Source: Naegleria gruberi | Taxonomy: Eukaryota | Assembly (NCBI GenBank): GCA_000004985.1 | Contig: GG738869.1 | DNA: 64,000 bases | Direction: 5' to 3' (one strand) | Part shown: positions 6,411-57,764 of the stretch, in pieces | Position numbering within the stretch: position 1 is the first letter of the stretch | Layout of the letters: the number at the start of each line of letters is the position of its first letter | The notes under the pieces: generated by a model | Database searches by the model: none | Told to the model about the DNA's origin: nothing | What the model saw: only the letters and a program-made list of their open reading frames with translations | Made by a program: the position numbers and the translations under genes

Positions 6411-6687
6411 TTTTTTTTAATAATAATAATATATTAATATTAATTCGATATATTTAATTAAGATTATTAATGGATACTGGGAGGTACATGTAAATTATAA
6501 TTATTATTACATCTTATTCTTTTTTAATTCAAATATAATGAGGTTACATCGACCAAAATCTCACAAATTCAATCAACGAATTTCCATAATGTTCCAGCGA
6601 CATTTGAAGTCTTGATTACAATTTCCATTCCGTTTATTGTCATCTTCCAAATTGAAACTCCAACGTTCTGCAGCATACTACAAAAAA

Positions 6688-8304
6688 ATGGGTCAAGGAC
6701 AAGGTCTATCCGCCTCTGATTCTGATGTTCTATTCGAAGAATCTGAATCACAAGAACAACAATATCAGAAAGTAATCTCTGCACAAGAGATGGCAAAATA
6801 TGTACGTACAATGTGTTATGTTCTATATCTCTCTAATTATAATTTATATTACGATATAGCAAAAAGTGATCAAGTCAAAATTGTCGGAATTAACTTGTTT
6901 CGGTAGCATTCCACCACTTGTTTTGAATGATTTGCTTTCGAATCTATTCCTGAAAGACTCTATAAAAAAGTATTACCTCTCATCTACACCTGAAGGTACC
7001 ATTGAATATGTAGGTTTTATTGTCATCATTTCCAAATATTTATTAATGTATATTACATGAAAATAACAAAATGATGATAATAATTGTGTGTTTTATTCCG
7101 ACTGATTATGATGATGCTCATTACGATGATTAAATGGAACTTGACTGGCGTACAATGATGTTCTTCAAAAATGACGTACGACACGCTATTTTGGATCATG
7201 ATTTGATGTGGAAATTTTTAATGCGGCTATTTGGAATCAAACTATTTGGCTATTATTCTAAACTACGTGAAATAATCAAATAGTTGGGAAGTTTGTTGAC
7301 AATTTACGAAACCAACGATAAAAATCAACACAATTTCTATCGTAATGTAAAATTGAATCAATATGTGACGGAAATGAATGAAAGGCAAAAGATTCCACAC
7401 GATAAAATTTTAAAAGTGAGATTAGTTTTGATTCAGACACCCAAAGACTATTCTACTTTGAATTTATTTGATTTACTTTCACCAGTTTTGGATAATTTTT
7501 CAGGGCTCTCTCCATCCCAAGCTTTTAATTTAGCCAATAATGAGGAAAATTTTGAAAATCAACCAATTACAGATGTTCAATTAACACCTGCAATTGCTAT
7601 TGGACCATTTTTGTTATATTATAATTCATTAGGTAAGTTTCAGTTGAATTCAAACTAATAGTTTGTTATTAATAGGTCTTGTAATTCCTAAAAGAGTTGT
7701 TGGCGAAGCATCATTTATTCTTTCAGAAATTGATCCATTTGCTTGTATATATTTAAATGATGAAACTCTCCATCGGTTGTCAACCATAGTTTTTGATTGG
7801 AATATCACTGCGAGATACTCTGTACAAACCAATAATTCACAACATTTTGTTGATTCACTGGCTACTCTATTCAAAATTTCATTGGTTGATAATCCAACAC
7901 TTGCTGAATATTTAAAATCTGTGAGATCGAACGGAATTGGTGATTGCACAATACCTTTCTCTGAAGCATTTAGGGAACAGTTCAAAGTTAAGAAAACTGA
8001 AAAAACATTCACAGATAGAAATGAGCTTTTGACTTTTACTTCCAAATTGGCTCAACGTAAATTTTCCAAAGAATCATTTCCAAACGAATGGAAATTATTC
8101 CACAATTTTGAAAGAATGTTTTGGAGTGAAATGATCCAGAGAGAGAAATACTATTTACTTGCTCATAAAGCAAAGGAAATCAAACGGAGCAGTGTGGACA
8201 ATCCAACAAGACACTCCATCTCAACCTCGACCATTGAAGAGAATATCTTTGGAGATGGAACCAAACTTTTTGCAAAATTACCAACTGTTCATGATTGGTT
8301 TTAA
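6688..8304 (+). CDS. Hypothetical N-myristoylated protein (MGQGQGLSAS...); join(6688..6801,6860..7009,7284..7632,7676..8304)
   Basis: Four ORF pieces join in frame through GT-AG introns: GTACGT 6802..6859, GTAGGT 7010..7283 (274 nt) and GTAAGT 7633..7675 (43 nt). An in-frame TAG immediately precedes 7284, so 7284 must be an internal exon (its track 'M' is TTG). It begins with MG..S, a myristoylation-type motif. Confidence 0.5.
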
Positions 8305-8478
8305 ATTATAATTTGCTTCATCATACATGTAATAAAAATTTAAGGATCTGTTTGTGATAATGAAATTCAATTCAATCGAGATCTTTAAAGATTCTCATAT
8401 TGAAAAACTTCAAGTTCATGACCTCTACCAAAATAAGAAAATTATTGTAAAATCAACAAGAAAACAAAATTAAAAAAA

Positions 8479-9072
8479 ATGTTCCTCTCTGATGATATTA
8501 TTATCAACATTTTTAAGCCACTCCTAGAATTCTGTCACTTTATTCAGCTCCGAGCTGTTAATTCTCATCTCTGTCGCTTAATTACCTCAAATTTAGAAGA
8601 AAATAATCAAATCATCAAGAAGGGAACACAACTGATCATTTTGAAAGGCAGTTTTAGAATTAGAGGTGATGTATTACTTCCCTTTACTGAAATTTTACGT
8701 AAACAGGAAATCAAATCTCAACACGTGATTGATGAATTCAACAGGAAGGATTATGGAAGATTATTTAAATTTTCTGATTTGGAATATGCTAGAACAAATA
8801 ATGCCTCTTTTAGAACTGAGTCTTTCCTACCACCAAACAATAGAAATTTAATTACTATCAAACATACTATCTCAGATCCTAATGATGATAGTGCTGTATG
8901 TTGTGCTAATTGTAAGATTGATTTGATTTTATCACCAACACAATCGAAAGCATGGAAAGAGGAAAATGGGTGTGTTGTTGGAATGGTTTCGAATGAATAT
9001 TTTGATTTGGTGTGGCATTATGATTTTCTTACTGGAATACGAGTTTATGTAAATATTTGTACAATCATGTAA
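8479..9072 (+). CDS. F-box-like domain protein (hypothetical)
   Basis: ATG at 8479. N-terminal 'DDIIINIFKPLLEFCHFIQLRAVNSHL' has the F-box signature. Confidence 0.45.
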   Translation: MFLSDDIIINIFKPLLEFCHFIQLRAVNSHLCRLITSNLEENNQIIKKGTQLIILKGSFRIRGDVLLPFTEILRKQEIKSQHVIDEFNRKDYGRLFKFSDLEYARTNNASFRTESFLPPNNRNLITIKHTISDPNDDSAVCCANCKIDLILSPTQSKAWKEENGCVVGMVSNEYFDLVWHYDFLTGIRVYVNICTIM

Positions 9073-9348
9073 AATAGGATTGAGTTTTGTGATGAAATGA
9101 AGTTCAAGATGGATTTGATAATTCAGCCAAAATGAATTGAGTAACCGAATGAATAGAACTGTTTTTGTATGGCTTTCCTCAATTAACTTGTTTAATTAAT
9201 AGTTTTTCAAATAAATATGAACGTTTATGAAGAAAAGTCTTCTTTCGAATAAGAAACATACTGAAACAGAAAATGGTCGTGTAGTGTACAACATTGGCAA
9301 ATCGTTTGCAATAGCCAAAACAAGCAACATCCACTCATTCCCAGCCAA

Positions 9349-12300
9349 ATGCAAAACGTCAATATTTATTCATCACAAAGAAAATACATGAATCGGCAAC
9401 TTTCCAATAACCAGATCTCTTCAATGAGTCAAGACAAAACCAACAATACATCCACAACAACAGTAGGAGAACCAGCACTTCTGGATTCTTCTCCTCACCA
9501 TCAACAACAACAACTCGAAGAAGAATTAATTCCCTCTTCATCATCGTCAACAACAAGCACAACCCCTCCACTATTACTCTCCAATCATAATCATCAAAAC
9601 AACAAGAAAGAAGAACAATCACTTGTTGCTACCAACTATAACACTCCTATCAATTCATCAACTCCTCTCGAAAATTCTTCTCCTTCCTCCTCTCCAAGCA
9701 CGACAGACGCAACAAAATCTTCTTCATCACCAAGTAATTCTCCCGCCAAACCGAAATTCAATTCAAAGGAAAAAACACCACAAGAAATCTACAGTGAATT
9801 GGCACTTGGTATTGCAGGCTCGAATTTTGGTTATCATCAACAGCAGCAACAACAGCAGGTGGGAAATAATGTGAGGCACTCGATAAGTATTCAACAGACG
9901 ACGAATAGGAGAGGAATAGCCTTTGAGTTGGGACGTGATGATGATGATTGTTCGGAAGGATTTAATAAGAAGGATTTGATGGATAAGGCTGATAAGAGAA
10001 AGAGTATTTCGATTGTTAGTAGTTTGGATATTCAACAGGTAAATCCAATTAGTCTTCATAAGAAGAAGAAGAAAAATTCACCAAGTTCAAAACAACCATC
10101 ATCAAATCATCCTAAAGGAGGATTATTCATGTTTTTCAATAATCCAAGAAATTCAATTACTAAAAGATTCAGAGCAAGTGTATCGGGAAAGGAAATGGAT
10201 GATGATTTAACTAAAATTCAACAGGAAATTAATGATCATGAGAGAAGGAGAACTCTTGGTACTACTTCAGACGAGGAAGTTGACGAAGAAACCAAATCCT
10301 TCTATAACATTATTCGAAATGGTGTTAGAAGAGGTAGTTCGAAACAATTGGAAACTCCTGTGAATTCTGGAAGTTTTATGGTTTTGGATGCCTCTCCTAG
10401 GATTCAGTCCAGTGATGTAACAAGAACTGGACCAATTCAAAATGTGGCCATGTCTTTGTGGACTAAGGTTGACAGTACTATTGCATTTAGATTGATGGAT
10501 TACTGCTCCTTGTTTGAGGTGAGCTCCCTTTCTAGGTTGAATCAAGAATGGCTTTCTTTTGTGAAGGGCTATTTTAGTAACCATTGCGATCCAGAAAATT
10601 TGAGAACTTGCATGTTGCTACTCTACTTTAAGTTGCAAGGTATCTTCTCAAATTTGAGAGCAGAGGTTTCTGCTGAGGACAGACATTTGAAATCAGTGTA
10701 TAGCGTTCTATTAAGTCACAAACATCTTTTGGAGCAATCTTTGACTAATACTTCAAAGAATAGAATTAGTATTACAACATCACGAGAACTTGGACTGGGA
10801 GATTTATTTTTGAACACATACCTGAATAATCTATTCAATATTATTCCAAGAGTTGCATACTATACAGCTAGAAAGAATGAAAGGAAGGTCATTAATTTTA
10901 ACGAAATTCAATATTCCTTAACTGTAGAAATATTTTTAAGAGACGAAACAGTTGTAAATACTCTAGATACGTACGATATTGAAAGATATGTACAAAACTA
11001 TTCAGGATCATTCGCTACTCAGTTAATTGCCACCTCAATGGCCTATTTTTCTGTTTACTATCTTAAAATAGAAAACTATACTCCTGCCACAGAACCTTTT
11101 GAGCTTACTGAATATACTGAAGCAGGCACTCCAGAGGCAAGAAGAGTAACTATTTCTGGTAACACACCAACTCCAAATTCGAAAGCAGGATCGTTTTCCT
11201 CACTCAAAAATCTCAAACTTGAAAGTAATTTTGAAGACACTATTGAAATGTTCAGAAGTCCCCGTACTCCTGCTACACCATCATCCAAAAACAATAGCTT
11301 CATAATGGACAAGGGAGAGTTCTTAATTGCCAAAGGTTCAGGTACAACCAAAAAGAGAAGAGAAAGTTTGGCTAGTGAGACTGGATCGGTCTCCTCCTCA
11401 ATCTCTACTCCTAATATTAATTTTAATTTCATTGAAATTATTCCGAAAGATAGTTCAGAGTTGGGCTATTTATTCCTTCTAGAATTCTTCAAGATTCTTT
11501 CAAAGTATATTAGGAGATTAACATTCAGCCGCAAACCTCATGCATCTGAAAGATTTAGAATGGACTATTTCTCTACAATGTCTCTATCACCTAATTGTGA
11601 GACCTTCTCAGCATTTATGACTAATGAAGAGGATGAATTTAAGAAAAATTCTAAAAAATTCAAAAGTGTTTGCAATGCTATTGCAACCTCAGAGGCACTA
11701 ACATGCTTAGTTATGGGTGGAAAGGAATGGAATCAAGAGGATGTCAACATTCTCTTCAATTCCCTTAGTAGGGCCGGTGATGAAATTAAACGAGATAACT
11801 ACAAAATAGATTTGATTCTTCCATGTTTGCTGGAAATTAGTGAAAGATGCACCAAGCCAAAACTGAGACCATCCATCTTCCTTCCTCCACCAACCAGTGA
11901 GAGTCTTGTCAGCGAAATTAATATTGCAGAAATTCATGAAAGTGTCACATCTCCTAGAATTCAAACAGACAGCATACAACCTTCCTTTGTTGTTTCCTCA
12001 TCTGGAGACTCACAAATTTCAAATGATTTTGATGAAGGTATTGTAAGATGGCCAAAACATTTAAAGCGTGTGTATTTGACAGATATCAATGAAAACTTGA
12101 TATTCCATGAAAGATGGTTGAATGGAAGTCCAGAAATGACTTCACTACATTTTAATTTTTCACTTTCTTCTCCTATTAATTTTGATGCTATTTGCCTTTG
12201 CTCAAATCTCAGATATTTACACATTTCAGATTGTGTATTGGGAAATAATAAGAATACAGCTCTGAATTTAATTAATGCAATCAAGAAATTAGACAAACTA

Positions 12301-12662: not shown

Positions 12663-13307
12663 TCATTTCATATCAATTCTATTACGCTCTTTTAAATAGT
12701 GATTTTCTGACTTAATTTCTCCACATACTGCAAAACAAGTTGCAAGAATAGCTGTTGAAATTGATCCAATTTCTAACATTGCCAACAAAACTTCATTAGG
12801 CAATTGCTCAGTCATCAAAGTATGAGGAAGTGTTTGAACAAATTCCAGTAAGCTTCTGGAATGATGAATTTGGATTTTAGTCTCATCAAAGAGTAATACA
12901 CCAGCGATTGCAATATTAACCACAACATCCAAACCATTTAAAACACTTGCAATGAAAAAAAGCTTACTTGCTTTTTTGGATTTTTCTGATTTGGATCTTT
13001 GATAATCAGCAAGACAACCTTGTAATGCTAAAATACCGCCAATCAAAGGCACTGATAGAATAATTCCTCGAGCAAATCTACTTGGAATTATCATACCCAT
13101 TCTCCACAATATTCTCAATCCAATAATTTCATACATTGATTCTTTCATTCGATGAAGAGGTTGCTTCTTATTATTTTGTTGATCATTTGTAAAATTAATA
13201 TTGGAAACTGAGAATTTTCTTTCTTTCGGAATCGTCCAGATAGTTAGTGCTGGATTTTTCTTTGAGATTAACCTATTAATAGGTATTAGGCATTTGAGTT
13301 TAATCAT
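12663..13307 (-). CDS. Small multi-pass membrane protein (hypothetical)
   Basis: ATG at 13307. Several hydrophobic helices (IILSVPLIGGILAL, LFFIASVLNGLDVVVNIAIAGVLLF, GSISTAILATCFAVCG). Confidence 0.5.
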   Translation of the reverse strand: MIKLKCLIPINRLISKKNPALTIWTIPKERKFSVSNINFTNDQQNNKKQPLHRMKESMYEIIGLRILWRMGMIIPSRFARGIILSVPLIGGILALQGCLADYQRSKSEKSKKASKLFFIASVLNGLDVVVNIAIAGVLLFDETKIQIHHSRSLLEFVQTLPHTLMTEQLPNEVLLAMLEIGSISTAILATCFAVCGEIKSENHYLKERNRIDMK

Positions 13308-17004: not shown

Positions 17005-18012
17005 ATGGTGACTACCAATAACAACAAGGAAACATCGGTCGCTTCAACAGAGAAGAAGCCAGTTGCTGTGACTACCAACAAGATTAGACAAAAGTTAAAG
17101 CAAATGAACAAACAAACAAAATCAACGGTTACAAATAGTGATAGTACCAATTCTAAATTCCACAACAAACAAAGAACTTTGATTTTATCTTCACGAGGTA
17201 TTCATGCTAAACATAGACATTTATTGAAGGATCTTCGTACCTTGTTACCTCACACTAAAACCGAAAGTAAATTCTCTAAAGAAGGAATAGATGAAGGAGA
17301 TTTGGTTAAAAAACTTCACAGACTTCAAAAGATTGACCACATTGCTGCTGCTTTGAAATGTCCAAATATTTTGTACTTTGAAGTTGATAAGGAATCAGCA
17401 GATACAGAATTGTTTTTATGGATGTCAAAGACTTCAACTGGACCTTCTATGAGATTTAAAGTTGAAAATATCAGTACTATGAATGAATTGAATCTTATCG
17501 GAAATTGTTTGAAATATTCAAGACCATTATTACATTTCGACAAAACATTTGACAATATTGAAGGCGAAGATAAGCTTACTCATCTCCCATTGATTAAGGA
17601 ATTATTAACACAAACTTTCTCTACACCACTTAATCATCCAAAATCAAAACCATTCTTTGATCACATGTTTGCTTTCTATTATTTGGATGGAAGAGTTTGG
17701 TTCAGAAATTATCAAATTGTTACAAAACAATCAAGCCAAGGAGTTGCATTGACTGGTTCCCAAAAACATGAATATTCTCTTGTTGAAATTGGACCTAGAT
17801 TTGTTCTCAAGTTGACTAAGATTCTCAATGGTTCTTTCGATGGTAGAGTTATTTTCAATAGTGATTCACACTTTGTTTCAAAGGCTGAAGTTCAAAGATT
17901 GGAAAGCATTAAACTTGACCTCGACAAGCAAAAAAAGACTGAAAAACACAGAAAGTACTTAGAATTGAGAAAGCCAGCTGATGCTGATGAAGTGAGTTCT
18001 GTTTTCAATTAA
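17005..18012 (+). CDS. BRX1: Ribosome biogenesis protein BRX1 (Brix domain)
   Basis: 'RTLILSSRGIHAKHRHLLKDLRTLLPHTKTESKF...' is the Brix/IMP4 sigma-70-like fold signature. Length 335 aa is typical. Confidence 0.85.
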   Translation: MVTTNNNKETSVASTEKKPVAVTTNKIRQKLKQMNKQTKSTVTNSDSTNSKFHNKQRTLILSSRGIHAKHRHLLKDLRTLLPHTKTESKFSKEGIDEGDLVKKLHRLQKIDHIAAALKCPNILYFEVDKESADTELFLWMSKTSTGPSMRFKVENISTMNELNLIGNCLKYSRPLLHFDKTFDNIEGEDKLTHLPLIKELLTQTFSTPLNHPKSKPFFDHMFAFYYLDGRVWFRNYQIVTKQSSQGVALTGSQKHEYSLVEIGPRFVLKLTKILNGSFDGRVIFNSDSHFVSKAEVQRLESIKLDLDKQKKTEKHRKYLELRKPADADEVSSVFN

Positions 18013-19559
18013 AAGTTTTTTCAAAAAACTGCTGTACTGATTTTTTTCAATATTCCCTAAAGCTCCTCACCTAAAGCAATAATAAGGACTTTGTGAGCGG
18101 ATTTTGAATGATATTGGAGCAAAATTTGTCGTGCCCAACTCAATTTTCCATCACTACAAGATATTAATCACCGCGTTTCATTTTGCTTTTTGTAATAAAA
18201 GTTGTAAAGTTATGACGTTGGATAGCTTTATAGAAAAAAATACCATCACCAACTGACAAACCAAAAATTATTACCTCCCAACAATAATTAGTAACATCAC
18301 ATCCTACCTCGTCTCTTAGGTTGAGTTCTTTTATAAGAAAGTTCTTTTCATGTAGAGGTGTTTTATAATTATTCCAAAATTGAAGTAATTGTTTTACTAC
18401 GAGGTAAACTCACAACAAATTCTCAAGGAGATGATGTTGTGTTTTGGGATGTAATGTTTCTTATTATGTCAGAAAACATCTAGTAAGGAATGATTTATTT
18501 AGAAGAAGAACAACAACAATATTTAGAAGATATAAAACCATCACTGTGGGCTGATGATTTTCAGCAATAATTTAGAGAGACCAAACAAAAAATGATTTAA
18601 TATTGCAACATACAAACACACCACTTCAGCACCAACAGCAAGTAATCGTCTATGGAAAACTTCATCAAAGAGGGTCTCCTTTTTTTCATCACTAAATTCT
18701 ATTGATGAAGCATCATGACTATATCCGAGGATTGTGAAACAACAACCAACAGCAGGCTTTTACGATGATTCCGCACATTTGAATGAAGTATTAGTTTAGA
18801 TCAACTGGTACTGAAAAGGAGAAAAAGTATGCTGCTTGTTTGGCTCCTACCTCATCACTTGCTGTTGCTTTTTGTTATTTACTCCTGAATGCGTTGCTAT
18901 CTTATATATGATTGTGATGTGTTTAATTAATAAGTTGGAGTGGGAGCAGCAACAGGGTAATAAATGTAAGTACCTACGATTTATTTGAAATTTTACCTTA
19001 ATTCCATTTCATAATTGACACCATGGAACATTTAAGGTGAAATCTTCACCAAAATAATAATTTGAAATAGTCAGTTTTGGAAAATGATGTCAGAGAATTT
19101 GATATTTATGAGTGTAATCTTTTCACATTTCAATTTGGTTGGTGCTATACATTCCATCATCAAGACTTAAGGTCCTGCCATTAATTAGAAACTGTGATGC
19201 AAGAAATAGTAACTGTTGTTGATGGAACTGTTTTAGAAGATTTAGCAAGTATTAATGTTGTCTACACAACAGCAACTGTTGCCATCTAAATCCTTACAAC
19301 TCTGAAGGTGAATTCATTTTGAAATATGATCCTCCAAGGGAAACTATGTTCATTCTCACTGATTAAAAGCTGATTTTACCGTTTGATTTGAGTGTAGACA
19401 TTTACAATAGATGATTCTCTTACACATACAGAGGTGAAAGAGATGCACTGATGATGTTCTTTCAACTCTTCAGTTTTGACTCAAGTCAAATTGTCTATTC
19501 AGTGGAAGGTATGGATGAGTTATCTATATAGTAGACACTTATAACTTTAGAATTAGAAA

Positions 19560-20100
19560 GCTATCAATTACCAATAAGACTATCATATTTATTACTTATC
19601 GGTGGACAAGAAGAAGGAAAACTTTGGAAATGAATATTACTGATACTCTTGCTCAACCAACAGGACTTGCTTTTTTCAGAATTCTGAACATGCTTCAATT
19701 AACACCATTCCATATACATTGCCTACAAGTTTTACATCAAGATTGTCAATGATCTTACAATAATTGCAAGATCTAGTGCTCCACCAACTCCAGGTCTGAG
19801 TTAGCAGCTCCTGTTCCTACTCTCAATACAACTATTGCCCCAACAAGTATTGCAGTTGGTGAGGATGGAAAAGTAACACACCCTCAAAATGTTAACACCT
19901 GCTCCAACCTGAACAATTTTTGTCGTGGCTAATACTGGATAATATCGGTCCTATTGAGGATGATGGCTTGGCTATTAGTTCTTCATTTATTACTGTTTCC
20001 TCTGAGGAGATTATTCTTGCTGATTGTATGAACAATAGAATTAGAAAGATTTGTGGAGAGGGAGTCATTACTACCAGTGGCTAATGCCTATGACTAAGAG
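19560..20100 (+). pseudogene. Degenerate NHL-repeat gene relic, paralogous to the NHL/EGF/kinase receptor at 30615..34371
   Basis: Several frames carry NHL-like pieces interrupted by stops: 'PIEDDGLAISSSFITVSSEEIILADCMNNRIRKICGEGVITTSG*', 'ITDTLAQPTGLAFFRIL', 'TIAPTSIAVGEDGKVTHPQN'. Compare 'GNRIRKI...TVCGNG' in the intact gene. No long ORF. Confidence 0.3.
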
Positions 20101-21329
20101 AGATGTTTGAAAGTAATTGACCTAACCTTTCATTTTGCGTATTGTATGGAATGAAATGTCTCTAGTCAAAGAAGTGTTTTTGAGAATTGTGAATAGTGCT
20201 TCAGTGATCGTTTGGGCTCTTGTTGATGGTAAGGAAATGAGTAGAGATATCAAAAAGATTGCATATGATTTTGCCTTCTTTACTATTGATGTTTCACAAG
20301 TTTGCCAAGGAATTGTAGTCATTCAAGTTATGTTAATATTCGTAAAAAAATTGAGAAAATGACTCTTTGCCACCTTGCTGATTTTCGAAGTGGTTTCTCA
20401 GCACCAAACTTTCACATCATCATCTAAACATCAATTTAGTAGTAATATAGTAATTTTTATTGGAGTATTTTCTTCATTATTTTGGAATTTATCTTCATGA
20501 TGAAAAATCACAAGTTGATGAATCATCAGAACATTATTGTTGTTTTCCATCAATATAATAATTTTATTTGTGGAAATTAATATATAGTAATGAAATTACA
20601 CTAAAATCTTCATCACCGTTGGATTTAATGGAAAAGTTGGAAAACTATTAATGTGGCATTGTTGGAAATGGACAATAGTATGATATAAAACTTTGTTTGA
20701 TCACTTTTCATCAAGTATTGATAGAGATAGGTACATGTGAATTTTGAAAACTAACATGAACATTACTCCATGTGTACTTCAACCAACTTGAATACAATCT
20801 TATAGAACTACTAGTACTATTTAAATCACGAATAAACACCATATTCATCATCAAATATTCGTCATCTTGTCGATTACGGAATTTCATTCCACCAGTGTTG
20901 ATTCGGGCCCAACAACAAAATATTAACAATAAAACAATTACCAATACTATTGTTTACATGTTTTATGTTAAATGATCGTAACGATCATCAAGATCATCCT
21001 GTTTTTATTGCATTTCTCATGATAATCAGAAATGTCACAGAGAGTGCCACATATCCATTCTACTCTCAATAAATAATAGTTCCTTTTTACACATGTGCAA
21101 CTTTGCTTATAAACATGATGAATTCATATATTAAAGACTCCAAAGGCTAGTATAATCCTCAATGTGATGTCTAATAATACCATTACAACTTAAAGATAAT
21201 TATCTTATAATTTCATTGAATATGAATTGAATTTGTAAATTGACATAAAACAGTGGTTTATTGTAATTTGGTTTAAAAATAGCTTTCTAAAGCACCTTGT
21301 TGTATCTTGTTGTGACATTTACTAAAAAA

Positions 21330-22385
21330 ATGGCAAAAGCACCAGCACAAATTGTTATGGAGAACAAATTGCGGAAATCATTAACATTAAAACAATTCAT
21401 AGAATTATCCAAGTCTACAAGAAAAAGGAGATTAGATAATCTTCGTAAGAAATTCTTTAATTCAAATTTATTTAAATATTCTTGGAGTAAATGGCGAGAT
21501 GCTATTATCGGAACAAACAATTCAATCCAATATTTATTAAAACAAAGAAAAAACATAAAAAATAATTTATCAACATCTACAATTGATACAATAATTCAAC
21601 AATTAAAAGAGGAAAGGAACAAATCTACAAAAAAAGAATCCAAAAAAGATTTTGAAAAAAAAATTAATAATTTATTACAATCTAAAAATTTATTCAAAAT
21701 CAATGTTAATTTGATATTATGTAGTAATTTGGCTAATACTATTCAACTAATGTTTTTAAGAAATATACTTCCCGAAAATACCACTACTGAGGTAACCAAT
21801 ATATTGGATAAAATTAACCAAAGAAGATCAAAGGAAAATTATTATATAGGAAGTTGGGGAAAGAGTTCTTCTTTTCTATTTAAAACTAATGACACTATTT
21901 TTAATGAATTATCTTCTCAATTTATTAAAATTATTAATTTATTAAAAAATTATGTTTTGGAAATATTGAAATTTGGAAATAACAAGATGAGGAAATTCTT
22001 AGAAAAATACAATAGTAGTGATTTTTTATCAATTTATCCGACAGTGTGTTTTAATTTTTTGGATAAATCTGTAGATGAAAATAGAATTCTACATATTCAT
22101 CCGGATAAGGAAGACACTGGAACTAGTCTAATTTTTTACTTTGGAAAGTTTAAAGGTGGAGCAATCTCATTTCCTGAATTAAATTTTAAGCTTATGGTTC
22201 AATCAGCAGATGTTTTATTGTTTGATGGTAAGAATAATTTACATGCTGTTGAATCACTTCATGGTAAAGATGATGTTAGATATTCCGTTGTATTCTTTGC
22301 TCATAAAGCAGACTTGGGTAAAACTAGTTATCCCATGAATAGAGGAGAAGTTATGAAAGGTATTAAGAATAAAATCAATAATTAA
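21330..22385 (+). CDS. Tet/JBP-family 2-oxoglutarate/Fe(II) dioxygenase (Naegleria Tet-like 5-methylcytosine dioxygenase paralogue)
   Basis: The C-terminal half 'HIHPDKEDTGTSLIFYFGKFKGGAISFPELNFKLMVQSADVLLFDGKNNLHAVESLHGKDDVRYSVVFFAHKADLGKT' carries an HxD...H iron triad. It is near-collinear with the NgTet1 core as I recall it (HKDNLD..SLFYFGNF..GYLEL..VFVQPGDVLFFKGNEYKHVVANI..GLVYFAHKGSKT). The first ATG is at 21330 (MAKAPAQ); the track start at 21297 is non-ATG. The gene is strongly AT-rich. Confidence 0.65.
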   Translation: MAKAPAQIVMENKLRKSLTLKQFIELSKSTRKRRLDNLRKKFFNSNLFKYSWSKWRDAIIGTNNSIQYLLKQRKNIKNNLSTSTIDTIIQQLKEERNKSTKKESKKDFEKKINNLLQSKNLFKINVNLILCSNLANTIQLMFLRNILPENTTTEVTNILDKINQRRSKENYYIGSWGKSSSFLFKTNDTIFNELSSQFIKIINLLKNYVLEILKFGNNKMRKFLEKYNSSDFLSIYPTVCFNFLDKSVDENRILHIHPDKEDTGTSLIFYFGKFKGGAISFPELNFKLMVQSADVLLFDGKNNLHAVESLHGKDDVRYSVVFFAHKADLGKTSYPMNRGEVMKGIKNKINN

Positions 22386-24134
22386 ATTTTAAATAATTAT
22401 TTAAATAATTTTTATAAATAATTTAATTGTATTAAAAAAATGTCTCCACACTTTAACCTCGAATTTTATTCGAGAAGCACAACAGTAATAGATGAAAGCA
22501 CTCTCGGTGGGCTTGATTTGATAATAACACACTTATACATCCTCTTGTAGGAGTATAATTAGTGTTGTTGTTGTGAGTTGAGGACGTTATTTTAATTCCT
22601 TTTCCCTTCTTCCAAAGTTTCCTGTTCAAACTTTGTTGCTTCCGTAAATCATATTATCAACAGGAAAGATCATTTAACTGCGAGCATCGTTGTTGGATAC
22701 AAACTATGCATTGACAATTCTTTTAATTATCTTGAATGTTTGGTAATTGATGGCAATGTTCATATAATCAACTCTCACCAAAGAAGAATTCTAAAATATA
22801 TCTAATGATCAGGCTGTTGATTTTCAACAACATACAGGTATTCGGAGCTATTGTAAAATAATTGTTTTACTTTGATGATTCAAATGGTTTTCAACAACTA
22901 ACATAATTCTTATCCATCTTGCAAAAAAAGAGGATACCATGACAGCAATCAACTTATATCAATATTGAAAAATCATTAGGAAATTATTCAGAAGTAGCAT
23001 GCATTGTAATTGTTGCGTTCAAAACATTTCTCAACATTAAATTCTTTCTCCACAATCAAACCCTGCTCAGCAACAATCAGAAGAGGAGCCATCTTTTAAT
23101 CTAACTTGCCATCTATGTTGAAGGAATGTACATTTAGAAATCAGTGATGTTCACCCTGAATGTGATGGATCTTTTTCTGGCTACTTGTATTGGTTGCTCC
23201 AGTAATTGCACATATGGAGGCTCTTTTAATGTTTCCAATAACCAAACTATGCTGGTGATTCCACTCCCAACCAAAACCCTATCAAAAAGAATTCTTCTAT
23301 ACAACTAGTATGAGTCATAGAGCTGTTGTCTTTCGTCCACTTTTAATAATAATATATGGTATGCTTTTGTTCAGGCTGTAATGTTTCGAGTGCAATTCAA
23401 CACCAGTGTTTTCATTCCAACCATGATTGGATCATATCTCCAAAGAGGACACTGGGTATTATTACTATTTAAAGTTGGCTACTAATAGTGAAATCTACTT
23501 GTTCGATCCAATGTTGGATGCCAAGTTCACTAGTGCTGAGCTGGCTATTGATATTTCAGATATCCTTTTTGTTTGTTGTCACTACCACCCTATTATTCAA
23601 CTTCTAGGTTTACGTTTCAAGAATCATGGGTTTATTTGGTTTAAGATGTTATGTTTCAGTATTCACGTAAATATGATGCAAGGAGGACACTTATTGCTGC
23701 TGTGGTGGTAATAGTAGCATTACCTTAGGTGTTGTAGTGTATACTACTTCATCATCTATTAATACTTATTCTCCAATTACTCAAACAAAGACAATTTCAA
23801 TCAACATTCACTATGTCAGTGCTTAATTATTCCAAGTTGTACTAAAACAACATCACTAACAAGGTGCTAAACAACTATGCTTTCCATTTCAACGCAGAGG
23901 CATATGTCTTGCGTTTGGGGCAGAGATTTAGTGCTTGAATAGTGGTTAAACAACAATGGATGGGCATTTTGGCAACTGGTTTTCAGTAGCTTCACATTCA
24001 TGTTGTTTGACTTAACAAACACTTTGGCTGCAATCTATTCACTCTTTATCCATCATTTATTCATCATTTACACCAATACTGTATTGTTTACATTTTGTAT
24101 GCTAGCTGGTTATTATTATTAATCATTAAAAAAA

Positions 24135-26864
24135 ATGGGAGTAGCGACACTTTTTACCAAAGCTGACGTTTTAAATTCCCACAACATCAAAAAGCAAAAA
24201 GAAACCAAACGTCCTGCCTTTGAAGGTGATAATGATAGATCGATTGTGGCGGCAATTAAAAAAACAAAACAACAAGCATCCAACGACTTTGAGTATTACA
24301 AGACATACAAAGAAACAGATTTCACTAATGAACAGAATTTTAGTTCAATAATTTATCAGATAATGCTAGTTCTATTGCCCTATTTTGTTTTTAAAATAAC
24401 CTCAGGATTATTAGATTTTGAATCAATATTATTATACTTTCTAGTCTCCACAAAAAAAGGCAAAGATTTATTAGCACAAGCCAATCTATATAGTACTGAG
24501 GGTGTTTCTTGGTGTGAAGCAATAGTATTTAAAGCAATTTGTAATGCAGATATAAGTATAGGGAGTTATGGTAGATTTATTGGTTGTTTAGAAGAATCTA
24601 GTAAATCAGACACATCCAGAAATAAGAAAAAGGCAAGACATTTTTTACCATCACTCTCTACAATAACAAAATATTCAAGTAGTTTACATCAAGTATTAGA
24701 TATCAATCATGCTGCAGATAGCGAAGGACTTTATTGGAGAATATTTTGTTCATCCATAGAACTTAATGACAGGACATTCAGATATGCAACGCTTCAAAAT
24801 GCAGAATTGTTTTTATTCTCATTTATTCGCTACCATGAAATGATCATAGGAGAATATATCTTCTTTGTAAAGATAAGATGTACTGTTGATGGTTCACCTT
24901 TAGAGGGAGCCTGTACTGCGTATGATATTGTATTAATTCATCCCAAGATAGATCCATTTTGTGCTCGTAATTATATTTCTGTTATTATTGCCGAGCCTAA
25001 AGAGGAAATAGCGTTCAAATTAAACATCTGGGATTTCTCTCGCCAGTTAATGCGTATCACACAGTTGAAATACTCTGTACCTAATGAAGAAACAAGAATT
25101 ATTCCTGTAAAATTTATTACCAACCCTGATAAGGGCGCCTTTAACAAAATTATAGATGTGGAAAAGGTAACGCCAATTTGTGATCCTATTTTTAATTTGG
25201 TAAATCTTTATTGCCTATTATCAATGATTTTCAATACAGATAATTCCTTAATACTACCTCTAATTCCAACAATAAGAGGAGATTGTAATAATGATAGCAA
25301 CAAAGCAAAAGGACAAGCAAATCTAGCAAAGGTTATGGAAATTAAAAAGATTATGCCTGAAACGTTACCTTATTACCACAACATTCCAACAAAATCCCAA
25401 ATATTTACTGATTTTCAATTAGATGAAGATTCTATTTTTTTAATTGAAAAATTTATCATTAAGAAACCTCAAACAGATTATTTATGTTGTATGTTTTGTT
25501 ATTTAACTAAACAAACAAAAAGAATAGCATTGAAGTATCCTGATTTGTGTACATGGAAATGGTACAGATCAAACGAAAGCTCAAGTAATGCTTTAGGCTG
25601 GCCTTTTAAAAGTTTTTCATGGTGTCTTTCGCATGATATAAGAGCCTGTGGTCAGAATCTTATTGAAGAAGAGGTGGGACAAATTGAAGAAGATAGACAA
25701 TATTTTGCCAAATTATTCAGTTCTGAATCTCCAATTGCCTCTTTGAAATGTGGTTCTAAAAAGCTAATTAATGAACAACTAGATGCCAACCTTGTTTCTG
25801 AATTTGAGTTTTGTCAATGGAGTGTATTTGAATTAAAGGTGAAAGAAGAAAAAAAGAAAAACAAAACAGGAACAGAGCTACGAACTAGTTCAGTTAAACT
25901 AATCTATGATCAGATTTTGTTTAAACAAATAGACAAAATTATAATGACAATAGATGTTTGGTATCCTCATTGGCTCACATATCGAGAAAACAAACAATTA
26001 CAGGTTTGTCAATCCCTTAACAATAATCAATCATTTGAAGATTGTACAAATGAAGAACACTCCAAGCGAGGAACATACAAACCAAAAAACTATGAACATA
26101 TATGGAAAGCTCTTCAAAAAACATACATTACTCTTCGCCAACCAAAATCTAAATGGTTAGAATGGAAGAAAACTGGATATCAAGAGCCATTGCTAATATT
26201 TAAGAATTTAAATAAGGTTTGGATAAAAGATATTTTAGGAAGAATATCAGAATATTTACACATTCATCAACATGCAGATATTGTGTTCGATGAAGTAGAA
26301 GAATCATTCGTAACAACATCAAACATTGGATCTGAATCTAAAAATTCTTTAAGAAGGAAGCGTCATGTTTCATTTGGAGTTAATGGTGGTTTAAGACATC
26401 CTTGTGATGATTCTTTATATTATGACAGCAAAAGAATTCTTAATGAATTGAAGATCCTTGCTGAGACTCCTAATATTATTGCAAGACAAGATGAGATCAA
26501 AAGAAAACAAGTTTCCGAAAAAGAAAAACTCACACAACCAAAAAAGAAAAGAAAATCTGAAACTACTACACAACCCAATCCAATAAGCTCAACCAATTCC
26601 TCAATTAATTATATCAATCCTTCCCTATTACAACCTCTACTTCCAGATAATTTTAATTCAATTACATTACACAATCAACACTCCTTCTCACCTCCTATAT
26701 ATATTCATCCTCTTCAACTCCAACCTCCACTAACTAACAATTTAACATTTTCTCAATTCAATCCTTCTCAAAATTCCAATAACCAACCAACATCTCCTTA
26801 CCAACCATCATCTCCATTTTCATTCTTTTCATCCTCCAATCCATCACCAAACTCCTTTTTATAA
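24135..26864 (+). CDS. Orphan 909-aa protein, N/K/I-rich, with a Cys-cluster ('YLCCMFCYL...CTWKW...WCLSHDIRAC') and a Pro/Ser/Gln-rich tail
   Basis: Uninterrupted ORF with ATG at 24135. No recognisable family by eye. Its composition matches the adjacent Tet gene and differs from flanking housekeeping genes. Confidence 0.55.
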   Translation: MGVATLFTKADVLNSHNIKKQKETKRPAFEGDNDRSIVAAIKKTKQQASNDFEYYKTYKETDFTNEQNFSSIIYQIMLVLLPYFVFKITSGLLDFESILLYFLVSTKKGKDLLAQANLYSTEGVSWCEAIVFKAICNADISIGSYGRFIGCLEESSKSDTSRNKKKARHFLPSLSTITKYSSSLHQVLDINHAADSEGLYWRIFCSSIELNDRTFRYATLQNAELFLFSFIRYHEMIIGEYIFFVKIRCTVDGSPLEGACTAYDIVLIHPKIDPFCARNYISVIIAEPKEEIAFKLNIWDFSRQLMRITQLKYSVPNEETRIIPVKFITNPDKGAFNKIIDVEKVTPICDPIFNLVNLYCLLSMIFNTDNSLILPLIPTIRGDCNNDSNKAKGQANLAKVMEIKKIMPETLPYYHNIPTKSQIFTDFQLDEDSIFLIEKFIIKKPQTDYLCCMFCYLTKQTKRIALKYPDLCTWKWYRSNESSSNALGWPFKSFSWCLSHDIRACGQNLIEEEVGQIEEDRQYFAKLFSSESPIASLKCGSKKLINEQLDANLVSEFEFCQWSVFELKVKEEKKKNKTGTELRTSSVKLIYDQILFKQIDKIIMTIDVWYPHWLTYRENKQLQVCQSLNNNQSFEDCTNEEHSKRGTYKPKNYEHIWKALQKTYITLRQPKSKWLEWKKTGYQEPLLIFKNLNKVWIKDILGRISEYLHIHQHADIVFDEVEESFVTTSNIGSESKNSLRRKRHVSFGVNGGLRHPCDDSLYYDSKRILNELKILAETPNIIARQDEIKRKQVSEKEKLTQPKKKRKSETTTQPNPISSTNSSINYINPSLLQPLLPDNFNSITLHNQHSFSPPIYIHPLQLQPPLTNNLTFSQFNPSQNSNNQPTSPYQPSSPFSFFSSSNPSPNSFL

Positions 26865-26897
26865 AATAAAAGGAATAATTTAAATTATAATAATTGT

Positions 26898-27659
26898 TTA
26901 ATATTTATTCCATTTAACAGATTCATCAAGCATAGAGCAGAAATAATCAAATTCAATTCTAATCATCTTCTCTTCAGGTTTGTAAATTAATTTAAATTGA
27001 TTAATTCCAAATTTCCATAAAATACCATCATGCTCCCATTTAAATGCATACCACTTATCACTAAACAAAGGAGGAAGGCTATAATTTCCAGCAAACAACC
27101 AATGATATGTTATCTTTGGAACTATTCTTCCTTCCCTTGCAATGCCACCCTCAATCAACATCTCTTCTTTTAAAATGCTATATGGTTTTGCCTTTTGTAT
27201 TTGATAATCAAAGAATAGCTTTGCTTCGTGATCATCTGTTACAGAAACATAATGTTGATGATGCCACTTGACATTATGGGTTGTATCTGGCTGAGCATTT
27301 CTAATAACTACCTCCTCAATAGTTCTCGGAAGTACCTTTAGGTATCTTGTTGCATAATATTCATCAGAATATTTTTCATCCATTATCTCACGCAGTGTTA
27401 TTGTTGGTAGGGAAGTATCAAAAAAGTATTCAAGTTGTTGTCTTTTCTCTAATGGTATGTTCACTTTCTTACTCTCTTCACTGCCTTCAAGAATGTTTGT
27501 TACTTGGCGTTTAGCTGTTTTCAAATCATCAACCTTCTCTACAACAAAACGTATTTTGTTTGTATTGTTATTCTTCTCCAACGATTTATTCATAGCTACC
27601 CTCTTACTTTTGCTCAACCTGTATACTTCAAACGTTACTTCTGTTTTGTTGGTGACCAT
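26898..27659 (-). CDS. Hypothetical protein (253 aa)
   Basis: ATG at 27659. Its stop is only 34 bp from the stop of the convergent 909-aa gene. No family assignment. Confidence 0.5.
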   Translation of the reverse strand: MVTNKTEVTFEVYRLSKSKRVAMNKSLEKNNNTNKIRFVVEKVDDLKTAKRQVTNILEGSEESKKVNIPLEKRQQLEYFFDTSLPTITLREIMDEKYSDEYYATRYLKVLPRTIEEVVIRNAQPDTTHNVKWHHQHYVSVTDDHEAKLFFDYQIQKAKPYSILKEEMLIEGGIAREGRIVPKITYHWLFAGNYSLPPLFSDKWYAFKWEHDGILWKFGINQFKLIYKPEEKMIRIEFDYFCSMLDESVKWNKY

Positions 27660-39468: not shown

Positions 39469-39542
39469 TACAGCGAGCGGGGCTTGAACCCGCGACCTTA
39501 AGCGTGTTAGGCTTACGATCTAACCAACTGATCTATCGCTGC
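39469..39542 (-). tRNA. tRNA-Val (anticodon AAC)
   Basis: The minus-strand sequence GCAGCGATAGATCAGTTGGTTAGATCGTAAGCCTAACACGCTTAAGGTCGCGGGTTCAAGCCCCGCTCGCTGTA folds as a cloverleaf. It has a 7-bp acceptor stem with one G-U pair, a D-arm GATC/GATC, an anticodon loop CUAACAC and a T-arm GCGGG/CCCGC. It is followed by a T-tract. Confidence 0.8.
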
Positions 39543-47170: not shown

Positions 47171-47251
47171 GCAGGGGTTCCCGAGTGGTCAAAGGGGGTA
47201 GACTCAAGTTCTACTGCGCAAGCTTCGTGGGTTCAAATCCCACCTTCTGCA
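47171..47251 (+). tRNA. tRNA-Leu (anticodon CAA), type II with long variable arm
   Basis: GCAGGGGTTCCCGAGTGGTCAAAGGGGGTAGACTCAAGTTCTACTGCGCAAGCTTCGTGGGTTCAAATCCCACCTTCTGCA. D-loop GAGTGGTCAAAG, anticodon loop CUCAAGU, T-arm GUGGG/CCCAC and discriminator A. It is followed immediately by GCTTTTTTT. Confidence 0.85.
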
Positions 47252-56783: not shown

Positions 56784-57487
56784 TTATTTCTTGGACTTCT
56801 TTTGTTGGATTCTCTTCAAGTAGAAAGCCAATTCAGCACCTTCCAAGACAATACCGTCAGCACGACCAACTTGACCTGGTCTAGATCTAATTCTAGCCAA
56901 CAATCTACCAGTGGACAATTGTTCCTTGAGGAGAGGATCAACTTCTGGAGCCTTCTTTCTATTTTCCAAAACCTTAGCCTTGGTCTTTTCGTCCATCTTT
57001 TCCAAGAGGTCTTCCTTCTTCTTACCCAAGGAGATACCGTAGGTCTTTTCGTAGAATTGCTTGAATGGAGAAGCATCAACCAAAACAACAGCACCCTTGA
57101 CGATAGCCTTAGTTCTGACCAATTCGTTGTTAGTGGCGTTGTAAACAACGTCCATGATTCTGGTTGGAGTAGACATAGCTTCAGAACCCCAAGCGAAGTT
57201 ACCGCTGTTCAATCTGAGGGCTCTAACCTTGTAGTTACCACCTCTAACTCTGACCATGGAGATCTTAGTCTTACCCATCTTGGTGTTAGCAGCAGCTCTA
57301 CCCAATTCGAACTTTCTCTTCTTTCTGTGGATCTTTCTCTTACCACCGGTAACACGCTTCTTATGGAGATCGCTCTTGGTAATACCTGGTTATTGATAAA
57401 TAGTAATGCGATGTTAAAATTGTTTATATGTTGTTGCCAGCAACAGTTGTTATTAATATTAGTAGCGAACCTCATCTACGTACCCAT
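56784..57487 (-). CDS. RPS8: 40S ribosomal protein S8 (eS8); join(56784..57385,57484..57487)
   Basis: 'MGITKSDLHKKRVTGGKRK...ISMVRVRGGNYKVRALRLNSGNFAWGSE...VRTKAIVKGAVVLVD' matches eS8 throughout. Exon 1 is only ATGG. A 98-nt GTACGT...CCAG intron (57386..57483) follows. Yeast-like codon bias (AAG/GGT/AGA). Confidence 0.85.
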
Positions 57488-57764
57488 TTTGACTTTGATG
57501 TATTTTTTTTCAACAAATTTTTGGTTAACTAGCAAAGAAGTTTTTTACAACCAAAACCTTCAATAAAAATTTCTCAGCTGTTCGAAAAAAGACAAGTCTG
57601 CTTCAACAAAACACTTCCCAACACCATCAGTGCATGTCTTTGAGCAAACTATCAACAGATCACATGCATCAATATTGTACTACTGGATTGACATAGTATT
57701 CACCTTCGTCTATGCAATGAAAGTATCTTCTCTTTAAAAAAGTCTTTAAATTACAACAAAAAAT

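Follow-up and report, generated by a model that had tools for sequence, protein, structure and literature searches.

A divergent Tet/JBP-type dioxygenase gene of Naegleria gruberi and its linkage to two orphan genes

Gene model and catalytic domain

The window, a 64-kb stretch of N. gruberi DNA on contig GG738869.1, contains a Tet/JBP dioxygenase gene whose full-length CDS lies at 21330..22385 on the + strand and encodes 351 aa plus the stop. The frame opens at 21291, after an in-frame TAA at 21288-21290, with its first ATG at 21330 and the stop codon at 22383-22385. At the gene's own base composition (stop probability ~9.6% per codon) the chance of 351 stop-free codons is ~4e-16, and the remaining five frames across the gene carry 13-52 stops. 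It is a real Tet-type DNA-base dioxygenase gene, already known and catalogued in databases.

The public model, NAEGRDRAFT_79850 (XP_002676954.1, EFC44210.1), covers 21750..22385 (+), begins at the internal Met141 and is 100% identical to the last 211 aa of the 351-aa ORF. Its start appears to have been placed too late, since conserved strands precede its Met: homology to NgTet1 begins at residue 125, and the confident strands 122-124, 128-132 and 137-143 of the AF2 model lie upstream of or across Met141. The 211-aa model is thus probably N-terminally truncated, short of 140 residues that include conserved core strands, which matters for expressing this paralogue. The N-terminal ~120 aa (21330..21689, +) are rich in Lys, Arg and Asn, have AF2 block-mean pLDDT values of 37-75, and are a candidate nuclear-targeting or DNA-contact tail. 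Basic N-termini also occur in other Tet family members.

XP_002676954.1 is probably the eighth listed member of the NgTet1-8 set ("NgTet8"). A literature search gave no match for NAEGRDRAFT_79850 or NgTet2-5, and no report of expression or activity of this paralogue was found in the accessible literature. With several N. gruberi Tet-like enzymes already known and this gene already in the databases, the field changes little.

The protein sequence matches NgTet1 (PDB 4LT5/5CG8) with E 3e-21 to 5e-21 over query residues 125-346, at 28% identity across ~230 residues. The PF12851 profile gives E 3.4e-5 and 23.6 bits against a gathering threshold of 34.9, over residues 262-337 and the C-terminal half of the profile only. 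A precomputed database annotation assigns PF12851 to the 211-aa model. The AF2 model of the 351-aa protein has a mean pLDDT of 79, with values mostly above 90 in the catalytic domain (aa 121-345; 21690..22364, +). This domain is predicted to be a double-stranded beta-helix with Tet-specific N-terminal strands and helices. The best Foldseek match in the PDB is 4LT5_A (E 7.6e-22, target TM 0.80, rmsd 2.9 A, 238 columns); the three NgTet1 entries 4LT5, 5CG9 and 5CG8 lead the ranking (target TM 0.78-0.80), followed by CcTet, CMD1, FTO and TET2.

The HxD iron-binding motif H257-P-D259 (cat ccg gat, 22098..22106, +) aligns with NgTet1 H229/D231. In the same alignment the distal iron-binding His305 (22242..22244, +) corresponds to NgTet1 H279, and Arg317 (22278..22280, +) to R289, the 2-oxoglutarate contact. 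H257, D259 and H305 are invariant in alignments of 23 and 31 homologues, and the position of Arg317 is almost invariant among the 23 and is R in 28 of the 31 aligned sequences. With the triad intact, the match to NgTet1 agrees with the earlier note, which had read the gene from its letters as a Tet/JBP-type dioxygenase with a core like that of the characterized Naegleria enzyme.

The NgTet1 residues N147, D234, F295, H297, A212 and V293 reportedly have base-pocket roles (Hashimoto 2014/2015). D262, F323, H325 and V321 are kept at the positions of D234, F295, H297 and V293. N147 is replaced by K178, at a loop position where the alignment may shift, and A212 by C240. These two changes suggest that substrate preference may differ from that of NgTet1.

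By homology, the protein would combine a basic, disordered N-terminal tail with a compact NgTet1-like double-stranded beta-helix domain. Fe(II) would be held by H257, D259 and H305, and 2-oxoglutarate by R317. A 5-methylpyrimidine may be flipped from DNA into the pocket of D262, F323, H325 and V321, where its methyl group would be hydroxylated, taking 5mC to 5hmC/5fC/5caC or T to 5hmU. The N. gruberi methylome contains 0.28% 5mC and 5hmC was not detected in it, and thymine or RNA has been proposed as substrate (PMC12344493). Since the organism is almost without 5mC and 5hmC is undetected, thymine and RNA are real alternatives as the substrate here. The deep divergence and the changed base-contact residue make this paralogue a reasonable candidate for the puzzle of an organism with many Tets, almost no 5mC and no detected 5hmC (PMC12344493).

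Composition, flanks and ancestry

The gene's GC content of 0.252, GC3 of 0.190 and N+K+I fraction of 0.318 are each more extreme than in any other of the window's 33 ORFs that begin with ATG and reach 150 aa or more. Relative to 29 selected ORFs (mean GC 0.339, sd 0.018), its GC has a z of -4.8. The lowest-GC gene-sized stretch in the whole 64 kb falls on the gene, and low GC is limited to ~21.2-22.0 kb (0.205-0.265), with 0.28-0.30 on either side. Per codon, the host-codon signal is 0.05-0.37 bits here and 0.29-0.49 bits in the Brix gene. The proposed comparison of GC3 and codon usage with the neighbours therefore comes out as the earlier note expected from its description of an AT-rich, N/K/I-biased gene. 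Outside the catalytic core constraint would be weak, and AT-biased drift there would best account for both the low GC and the abundance of N, K and I in the protein, in keeping with the long branch and the missing close orthologues described below. A deviation of this size is also a classic foreign-DNA signature. A separate low-GC patch lies at 20.4-20.6 kb.

The gene is flanked by an upstream ORF-free stretch of 3.3 kb (18013..21329, GC 0.321) and a downstream one of 1.75 kb (22386..24134, GC 0.330). The window's two longest runs in which no frame stays open for 110 codons or more are 18010-21290 (3281 nt) and 22383-24122 (1740 nt), with the third at 891 nt, so the gene does sit alone between ~3.3 kb and ~1.7 kb of non-coding DNA, as first described. 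Of the "AT-rich, gene-poor island" proposed for this region, the gene-poor part stands, whereas the flanks are not AT-rich, their GC being that of the window average. They also do not appear partly degenerate. Flank ORF lengths are no different from the shuffled expectation, a codon-usage scan finds no host-codon signal in either flank, and tblastx, blastn and tblastn comparisons with the Tet gene, its neighbours, the rest of the window, the locus of the relative in Willaertia magna and the other fetched loci give no similarity. Rfam and tRNA scans of the flanks find no RNA families or tRNAs. On these negative results, decayed genes were rejected as the source of the flanks.

The isolation and composition of the gene had suggested a recently acquired or mobile paralogue, brought in by horizontal transfer or as transposon cargo, with the AT-richness coming from a donor and the flanks being insertion debris. 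In composition no other gene of the window deviates as much, the gene lies between the two largest ORF-free stretches, and the databases searched hold no orthologue with at least 50% identity to the protein. Against a recent arrival, searches for terminal inverted or direct repeats around the gene or island (16-28 kb) return chance-level arms only, no longer than 43 nt (72% complementarity), and the Willaertia locus likewise has chance-level arms only. Transposon ends were accordingly rejected as an explanation of the flanks, for lack of credible inverted or direct repeats. The proposed check for further copies with the same flanks finds no second or decayed Tet copy in the 64-kb window. IMG/VR holds no viral relatives of the Tet protein or of the 909-aa ORF that follows it downstream, and a giant-virus origin was rejected. 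The flanks, with ordinary GC, have no homology to anything, and linkage with two neighbours of ordinary GC (0.315 and 0.329) is kept in Willaertia. A recent or mobile origin is thus very unlikely.

HMMER, run exhaustively on 1.84 billion representatives, returns just 32 relatives, the best non-self one being 33% identical, and a word-index search of 5.8 billion proteins matches the gene's own record alone. With the best identity at 33%, a transfer, if there was one, would have to be very old, with a donor not yet sampled. The informative relatives with a named source are all heterolobosean, namely N. gruberi paralogues and Willaertia. In a neighbor-joining (NJ) tree the gene forms a long branch of its own, outside a clade with 95.5% support that holds NgTet1 and the other N. 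gruberi paralogues sampled, XP_002668594, XP_002676528 and XP_002674105, which are probably NgTet3, NgTet4 and NgTet6. The Willaertia protein groups with the gene in 43 of 200 NJ bootstraps and with the N. gruberi paralogue clade in 44 of 200. Its orthology rests mainly on linkage, because the tree leaves sister status unsupported.

The long branch, the extreme AT and N/K/I bias and a host-codon signal weaker than that of the neighbours could also indicate a decaying, non-functional relic, a Tet paralogue drifting AT-rich toward a pseudogene. Replacement of the NgTet1 pocket residue N147 by Lys would fit such a relic, as would undetectable 5hmC in N. gruberi (PMC12344493). Decay is highly improbable, given that the 351-codon frame is intact against the chance value above, that every cofactor ligand and most residues of the pocket are preserved, and that the predicted fold is confident. 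The gene is probably a long-standing resident of the genome, an ancient paralogue in the N. gruberi Tet/JBP family that evolves fast. The unsupported sister status of the Willaertia protein, the rearranged gene block described below, the z of -4.8 and the PF12851 score under the gathering cut-off are counterpoints to this reading.

Linked orphan genes

Two ORFs lie downstream of the gene. The first, a 909-aa lineage-specific ORF (NAEGRDRAFT_67858, XP_002676955.1; 24135..26864, +), has a Willaertia homologue at E 7e-19 / 8e-22. The second, a 253-aa ORF on the - strand (26898..27659), has a Willaertia homologue at E 1e-14 / 5e-15; it lacks an NCBI protein record, its exact sequence was found only in Logan/ENA sources, and it has no Pfam match. 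The GC of the 909-aa and 253-aa ORFs, 0.315 and 0.329 respectively, is ordinary for N. gruberi.

Willaertia is the sister genus of Naegleria (PMC11702301). The Tet relative of Willaertia magna, KAL9657964.1, is linked to homologues of both ORFs, and the trio lies within 6.5-8 kb in both organisms despite rearrangement, order and orientation differing between the two. The Willaertia locus (21 kb) and the 64-kb window have no other gene in common. Linkage of the Tet gene and its two neighbours in Willaertia points to an old linked block, and this small block would be older than the Naegleria-Willaertia split. The three-gene linkage is the sole new lead here, and offers a concrete and cheap comparative-genomics route to functional partners of protist Tets.

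The linkage raises the question of whether the trio is a functional or mobile module like the fungal TET/JBP-KDZ association, with the 909-aa protein as a divergent DDE-type transposase or a zinc-binding, DNA-targeting partner. The 909-aa ORF and its Willaertia homologue are 23% identical overall and keep D252, D332, E511, C451, C452, C455 and C497-x-x-H500, although columns conserved between two sequences only are weak evidence. Other environmental Tet loci also adjoin large Pfam-less ORFs, but the large ORFs beside those Tet genes (L003, L004/L005) have no detectable kinship to the 909-aa or 253-aa ORFs, and no repeats bound the block. Pfam holds models for the major eukaryotic DNA-transposase families, and the 909-aa ORF has no Pfam match even at E 10 and no PDB match in a profile search. 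Two protein-database searches return nothing, not even its own record, which is clustered under a 54-aa representative, and a metagenome scan with it is empty. Its single-sequence AF2 model (pLDDT 34) is unusable. Scanning metagenomes with the Tet alignment of Naegleria and Willaertia gives no third case of the linkage. Residual microsynteny of sister genera is the simpler reading, and such a module is unlikely. It is distinctly improbable that the trio is a conserved heterolobosean module in which a transposase-derived or zinc-binding 909-aa protein works with the Tet enzyme and the flanks are a regulated or heterochromatic target or a landing zone.

Comparison with known systems

NgTet1 (4LT5, 5CG8, 5CG9) is from the same organism and family, and is likewise a compact single domain with a basic N-terminal tail. 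Equivalents of its HxD...H triad, R289, D234, F295, H297, V293, R224 and S148 are kept. The 351-aa gene differs in lying outside the NgTet1 clade, in the changes N147 to K178 and A212 to C240, and in being far more AT-rich. NgTet1-8 is the N. gruberi Tet paralogue set reportedly published by Hashimoto et al. in 2014 (Nature 506:391); the 211-aa sequence listed there is probably truncated, and the ORF supports 351 aa.

The Willaertia protein KAL9657964.1 (ABK040_012186, 357 aa) is 25-29% identical, has a similar length and a basic N-terminus, and shares the local motifs SFLFK[TS]NDT and IYP[TS]V and the C-terminal Y-x-M-x-x-GE. Unlike the N. gruberi gene, its GC of 0.276 matches that of its own locus (0.277), so it is no compositional outlier there.

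Fungal TET/JBP proteins, represented by Coprinopsis CcTet (7VPN), share the superfamily fold (Foldseek E 6e-11), and their genes are comparable in that a Tet gene may travel together with a large, lineage-specific ORF. In basidiomycetes, fungal TET/JBP genes are said to be associated with KDZ transposons (Iyer et al., PNAS, 2014). The differences are a sequence identity of 14-15%, a 909-aa ORF without detectable likeness to any Pfam transposase, KDZ included, and an N. gruberi locus without repeats or multi-copy expansion. If the trio were a module after all, it would be a protist equivalent of the TET/JBP-KDZ pairing in fungi.

Mammalian TET1-3, trypanosomatid JBP1/2 and algal CMD1 are more distant. 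The 351-aa protein is far smaller and is without the Cys-rich domain, the large low-complexity insert, the CXXC domain and the JBP DNA-binding domain. The co-substrate of CMD1 is vitamin C and not 2-oxoglutarate (PMC7854593). Foldseek matches of the 351-aa model to TET2 and CMD1 have E 1e-6 to 7e-9, and the likeness to this wider group lies in the double-stranded beta-helix fold and the Fe/2-oxoglutarate centre.

Reading frame and start of the Tet gene

The Tet/JBP dioxygenase gene at 21330-22385 (+) is annotated as NAEGRDRAFT_79850 (XP_002676954.1 / EFC44210.1, on a 747-kb scaffold), to which the last 211 residues of the ORF are 100% identical. We also take it to be one of the eight listed NgTet paralogues, and on both counts it is already known. 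The frame is open from 21291, just after an in-frame TAA at 21288-21290, and ends at 22385. Given the gene's base composition, about one stop per 10 codons is expected and 351 codons would stay open by chance with a probability of about 4e-16; each of the other five frames is interrupted by 13-52 stops, and the reading frame has therefore been maintained.

The public 211-aa model begins at Met141 (21750) and leaves out 140 in-frame codons (21330-21749). Homology to NgTet1, the characterised N. gruberi Tet-like enzyme, starts earlier, at residue 125, and the AlphaFold2 model has confident beta-strands (122-124, 128-132 and 137-143) upstream of or spanning Met141 that align with equivalent strands in other family members. 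Based on homology and the model, the omitted codons probably include conserved core strands, with a full protein of 351 aa. Of the in-frame ATGs at 21330, 21357 and 21750, the first is the most likely start and the second a possible one, for a protein of about 351 aa. The model has low confidence over residues 1-120, which are rich in Lys, Arg and Asn and resemble the basic N-termini of relatives. A corrected gene start for NAEGRDRAFT_79850 is a by-product of this analysis.

Base composition and ORF-free flanks

The Tet gene has a GC of 0.252, a GC3 of 0.190 and an N+K+I fraction of 0.318, each extreme among the 33 ATG-started window ORFs of at least 150 aa. Its GC lies at z = -4.8 relative to 29 other window ORFs (mean 0.339, sd 0.018); of all gene-sized segments across the 64 kb, the one with the lowest GC falls on it. 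The AT bias extends over the N-terminal tail (GC 0.232) as well as the catalytic domain (0.265). These values bear out an earlier note describing the gene as more AT-rich and N/K/I-biased than its neighbours. At the other compositional extreme of the window is a 164-aa ORF at 56784-57278 (-), with a GC of 0.434 and a GC3 of 0.491, which overlaps an opposite-strand 254-aa ORF (56802-57566).

No other run in the window that lacks a stop-free frame of 110 codons or more is as long as those at 18010-21290 (3281 nt) and 22383-24122 (1740 nt), the third longest being 891 nt. The gene is isolated between ORF-free stretches, as proposed, but the proposed AT-rich island is not there, since the GC of the flanks (0.321 and 0.330) is that of the window average. 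Nor do the flanks show any sign of being partly degenerate DNA or degenerate genes: their ORF lengths match the expectation from shuffled sequence, they carry no host-codon signal, and they resemble neither the Tet gene and its neighbours nor any other part of the window, nor the Willaertia locus. An Rfam scan of the flanks gave nothing at or near gathering score, its one snoRNA match (E 0.19) being at chance level; a tRNA scan found none within them, and neither inverted nor direct repeats of any significance turned up. Elsewhere the window has tRNA-Val(AAC) at 39469-39542 (-) and tRNA-Leu(CAA) at 47171-47251 (+). The CpG observed/expected ratio of the two flanks is low at 0.34, close to the likewise low 0.40 of coding DNA; in the window's other spacers of at least 600 nt it is mostly higher, about 0.5-1.0. 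Methylation in N. gruberi has been reported to lack a CpG preference.

Relatives and linkage with Willaertia magna

HMMER, run exhaustively against 1.84 billion representative proteins, returned only 32 relatives, the best non-self one at 33% identity, and a word-index search across 5.8 billion clusters recovered nothing beyond the gene itself. Relatives from named sources are the N. gruberi paralogues XP_002676528, XP_002674105 and XP_002668594, one protein of Willaertia magna and one of a chytrid; no relative is encoded on the viral contigs searched. In a neighbor-joining tree (200 bootstraps) the protein is a lone long branch outside a 95.5%-supported clade of NgTet1 and the three N. gruberi paralogues; it pairs with Willaertia in 43 of the 200 replicates and with the N. 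gruberi clade in 44. Together with the Willaertia linkage described below, this evidence points away from the recently acquired or mobile paralogue that the earlier note suggested.

A 21-kb W. magna locus (L001) encodes a Tet relative of 357 aa and, within 8 kb of it, homologues of both downstream neighbours of the window gene: a 749-aa homologue of the 909-aa ORF at 24135-26864 (+) (E 7e-19 by blastp, 8e-22 by phmmer) and a 264-aa homologue of the 253-aa ORF at 26898-27659 (-) (E 1e-14). These three are the only genes common to the window and L001. The trio spans 21330-27659 in the window and 3282-11074 in L001, with the order rearranged: in Willaertia the 264-aa gene, the 749-aa gene, 3.5 kb without a called gene and Tet follow one another on one strand, whereas in Naegleria Tet is followed by a 1.7-kb gap, the 909-aa ORF on the same strand and the 253-aa ORF on the opposite one. 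The Willaertia Tet gene has the GC of its own locus, whereas the window gene is strongly AT-shifted, and its 909-aa and 253-aa neighbours (GC 0.315 and 0.329) are ordinary for N. gruberi. The two genera are sisters (PMC11702301). Most simply read, the three genes are an old linked block, of which only the Tet gene of Naegleria has drifted to high AT; this conserved linkage is worth comparative follow-up. The Willaertia stretch upstream of Tet (6449-10000) contains uncalled ORFs of 150 aa (6719-7171) and 286 aa (7214-8074), the latter with a Ser/Thr/Asn-rich translation, and does not resemble the N. gruberi Tet flanks.

The 909-aa protein (NAEGRDRAFT_67858) is XP_002676955.1, directly after the Tet accession, and the lipase beyond is XP_002676956.1. 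At 23% identity the Willaertia homologue keeps C451, C452, C455 and C497-x-x-H500, as well as the acidic D252, D332 and E511, a pattern compatible with, though far from proof of, a zinc-binding module or DDE-type nuclease. Single-sequence structure prediction was uninformative (pLDDT 34). In 90%-identity clustering the protein falls under a 54-aa bacterial fragment named "phage integrase N-terminal SAM-like"; this grouping, which looks like an artefact, masked the protein in both homology searches. The 253-aa ORF has no Pfam domain and seems to be an N. gruberi gene that lacks annotation, its exact sequence occurring in Logan/ENA sources and not in NCBI. The same distribution is seen for a 214-aa ORF at 12663-13307 (-), possibly another unannotated gene.

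In fungi, TET/JBP genes are associated with KDZ transposons. The linkage in both genera would suit an analogous Tet-plus-partner module, and environmental heterolobosean-type Tet genes (L003, L004/L005) are each followed by a gap of about 1 kb and large Pfam-less ORFs (L004 2970-6143, L005 3137-5416, L003 4597-7551, all (-); 1057 aa and 579 + 395 aa). However, these ORFs have no detectable sequence relation to the 909-aa ORF, and neither the latter nor its Willaertia homologue has a Pfam match even at E 10 or a match in the PDB, making such a module improbable. The old linked block remains the simplest reading.

Predicted enzyme and comparison with NgTet1

The earlier Tet/JBP assignment holds, although Pfam Tet_JBP matches only weakly (E 3.4e-5), its 23.6 bits falling under the 34.9-bit gathering score. 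Crystallised NgTet1 matches at E 3e-21 across residues 125-346. An AlphaFold2 model computed from 23 homologues reaches pLDDT >90 for most of residues 121-345, and its best PDB matches are NgTet1 structures (E 7.6e-22, target TM 0.80, rmsd 2.9 A), followed by fungal CcTet, algal CMD1, FTO and human TET2. Judged by homology and predicted fold, the gene encodes a Tet enzyme. As a putative Fe(II)/2-oxoglutarate dioxygenase, it would flip a 5-methylpyrimidine out of DNA and then oxidise its methyl group. A recent methylome study of N. gruberi measured only 0.28% 5mC, spread over all dinucleotide contexts, and detected no 5hmC; it proposed that the Tet-like enzymes act on thymine or RNA in vivo (PMC12344493).

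Residues were mapped onto NgTet1 by alignment, allowing for the 6 residues by which the numbering of the PDB chain differs from the native one, after which every residue type listed for NgTet1 agreed with the PDB sequence. H257, D259 and H305, invariant across all aligned homologues, correspond to H229, D231 and H279 of NgTet1, which we take to be the Fe(II) ligands, and R317 to R289, presumably the 2-oxoglutarate contact. Because these are kept, the enzyme looks cofactor-competent. Also kept are four presumed base-pocket residues (D262, V321, F323 and H325 for D234, V293, F295 and H297), the presumed DNA contact S148 (S179) and R224 (R252, no role assigned). This residue-level comparison, a further by-product, sets the window protein apart from NgTet1 at two positions, K178 for N147 (presumably a base contact) and C240 for A212 (which we place in the pocket); given the change of N147 to Lys, one may speculate that this paralogue is a candidate for a non-5mC substrate.
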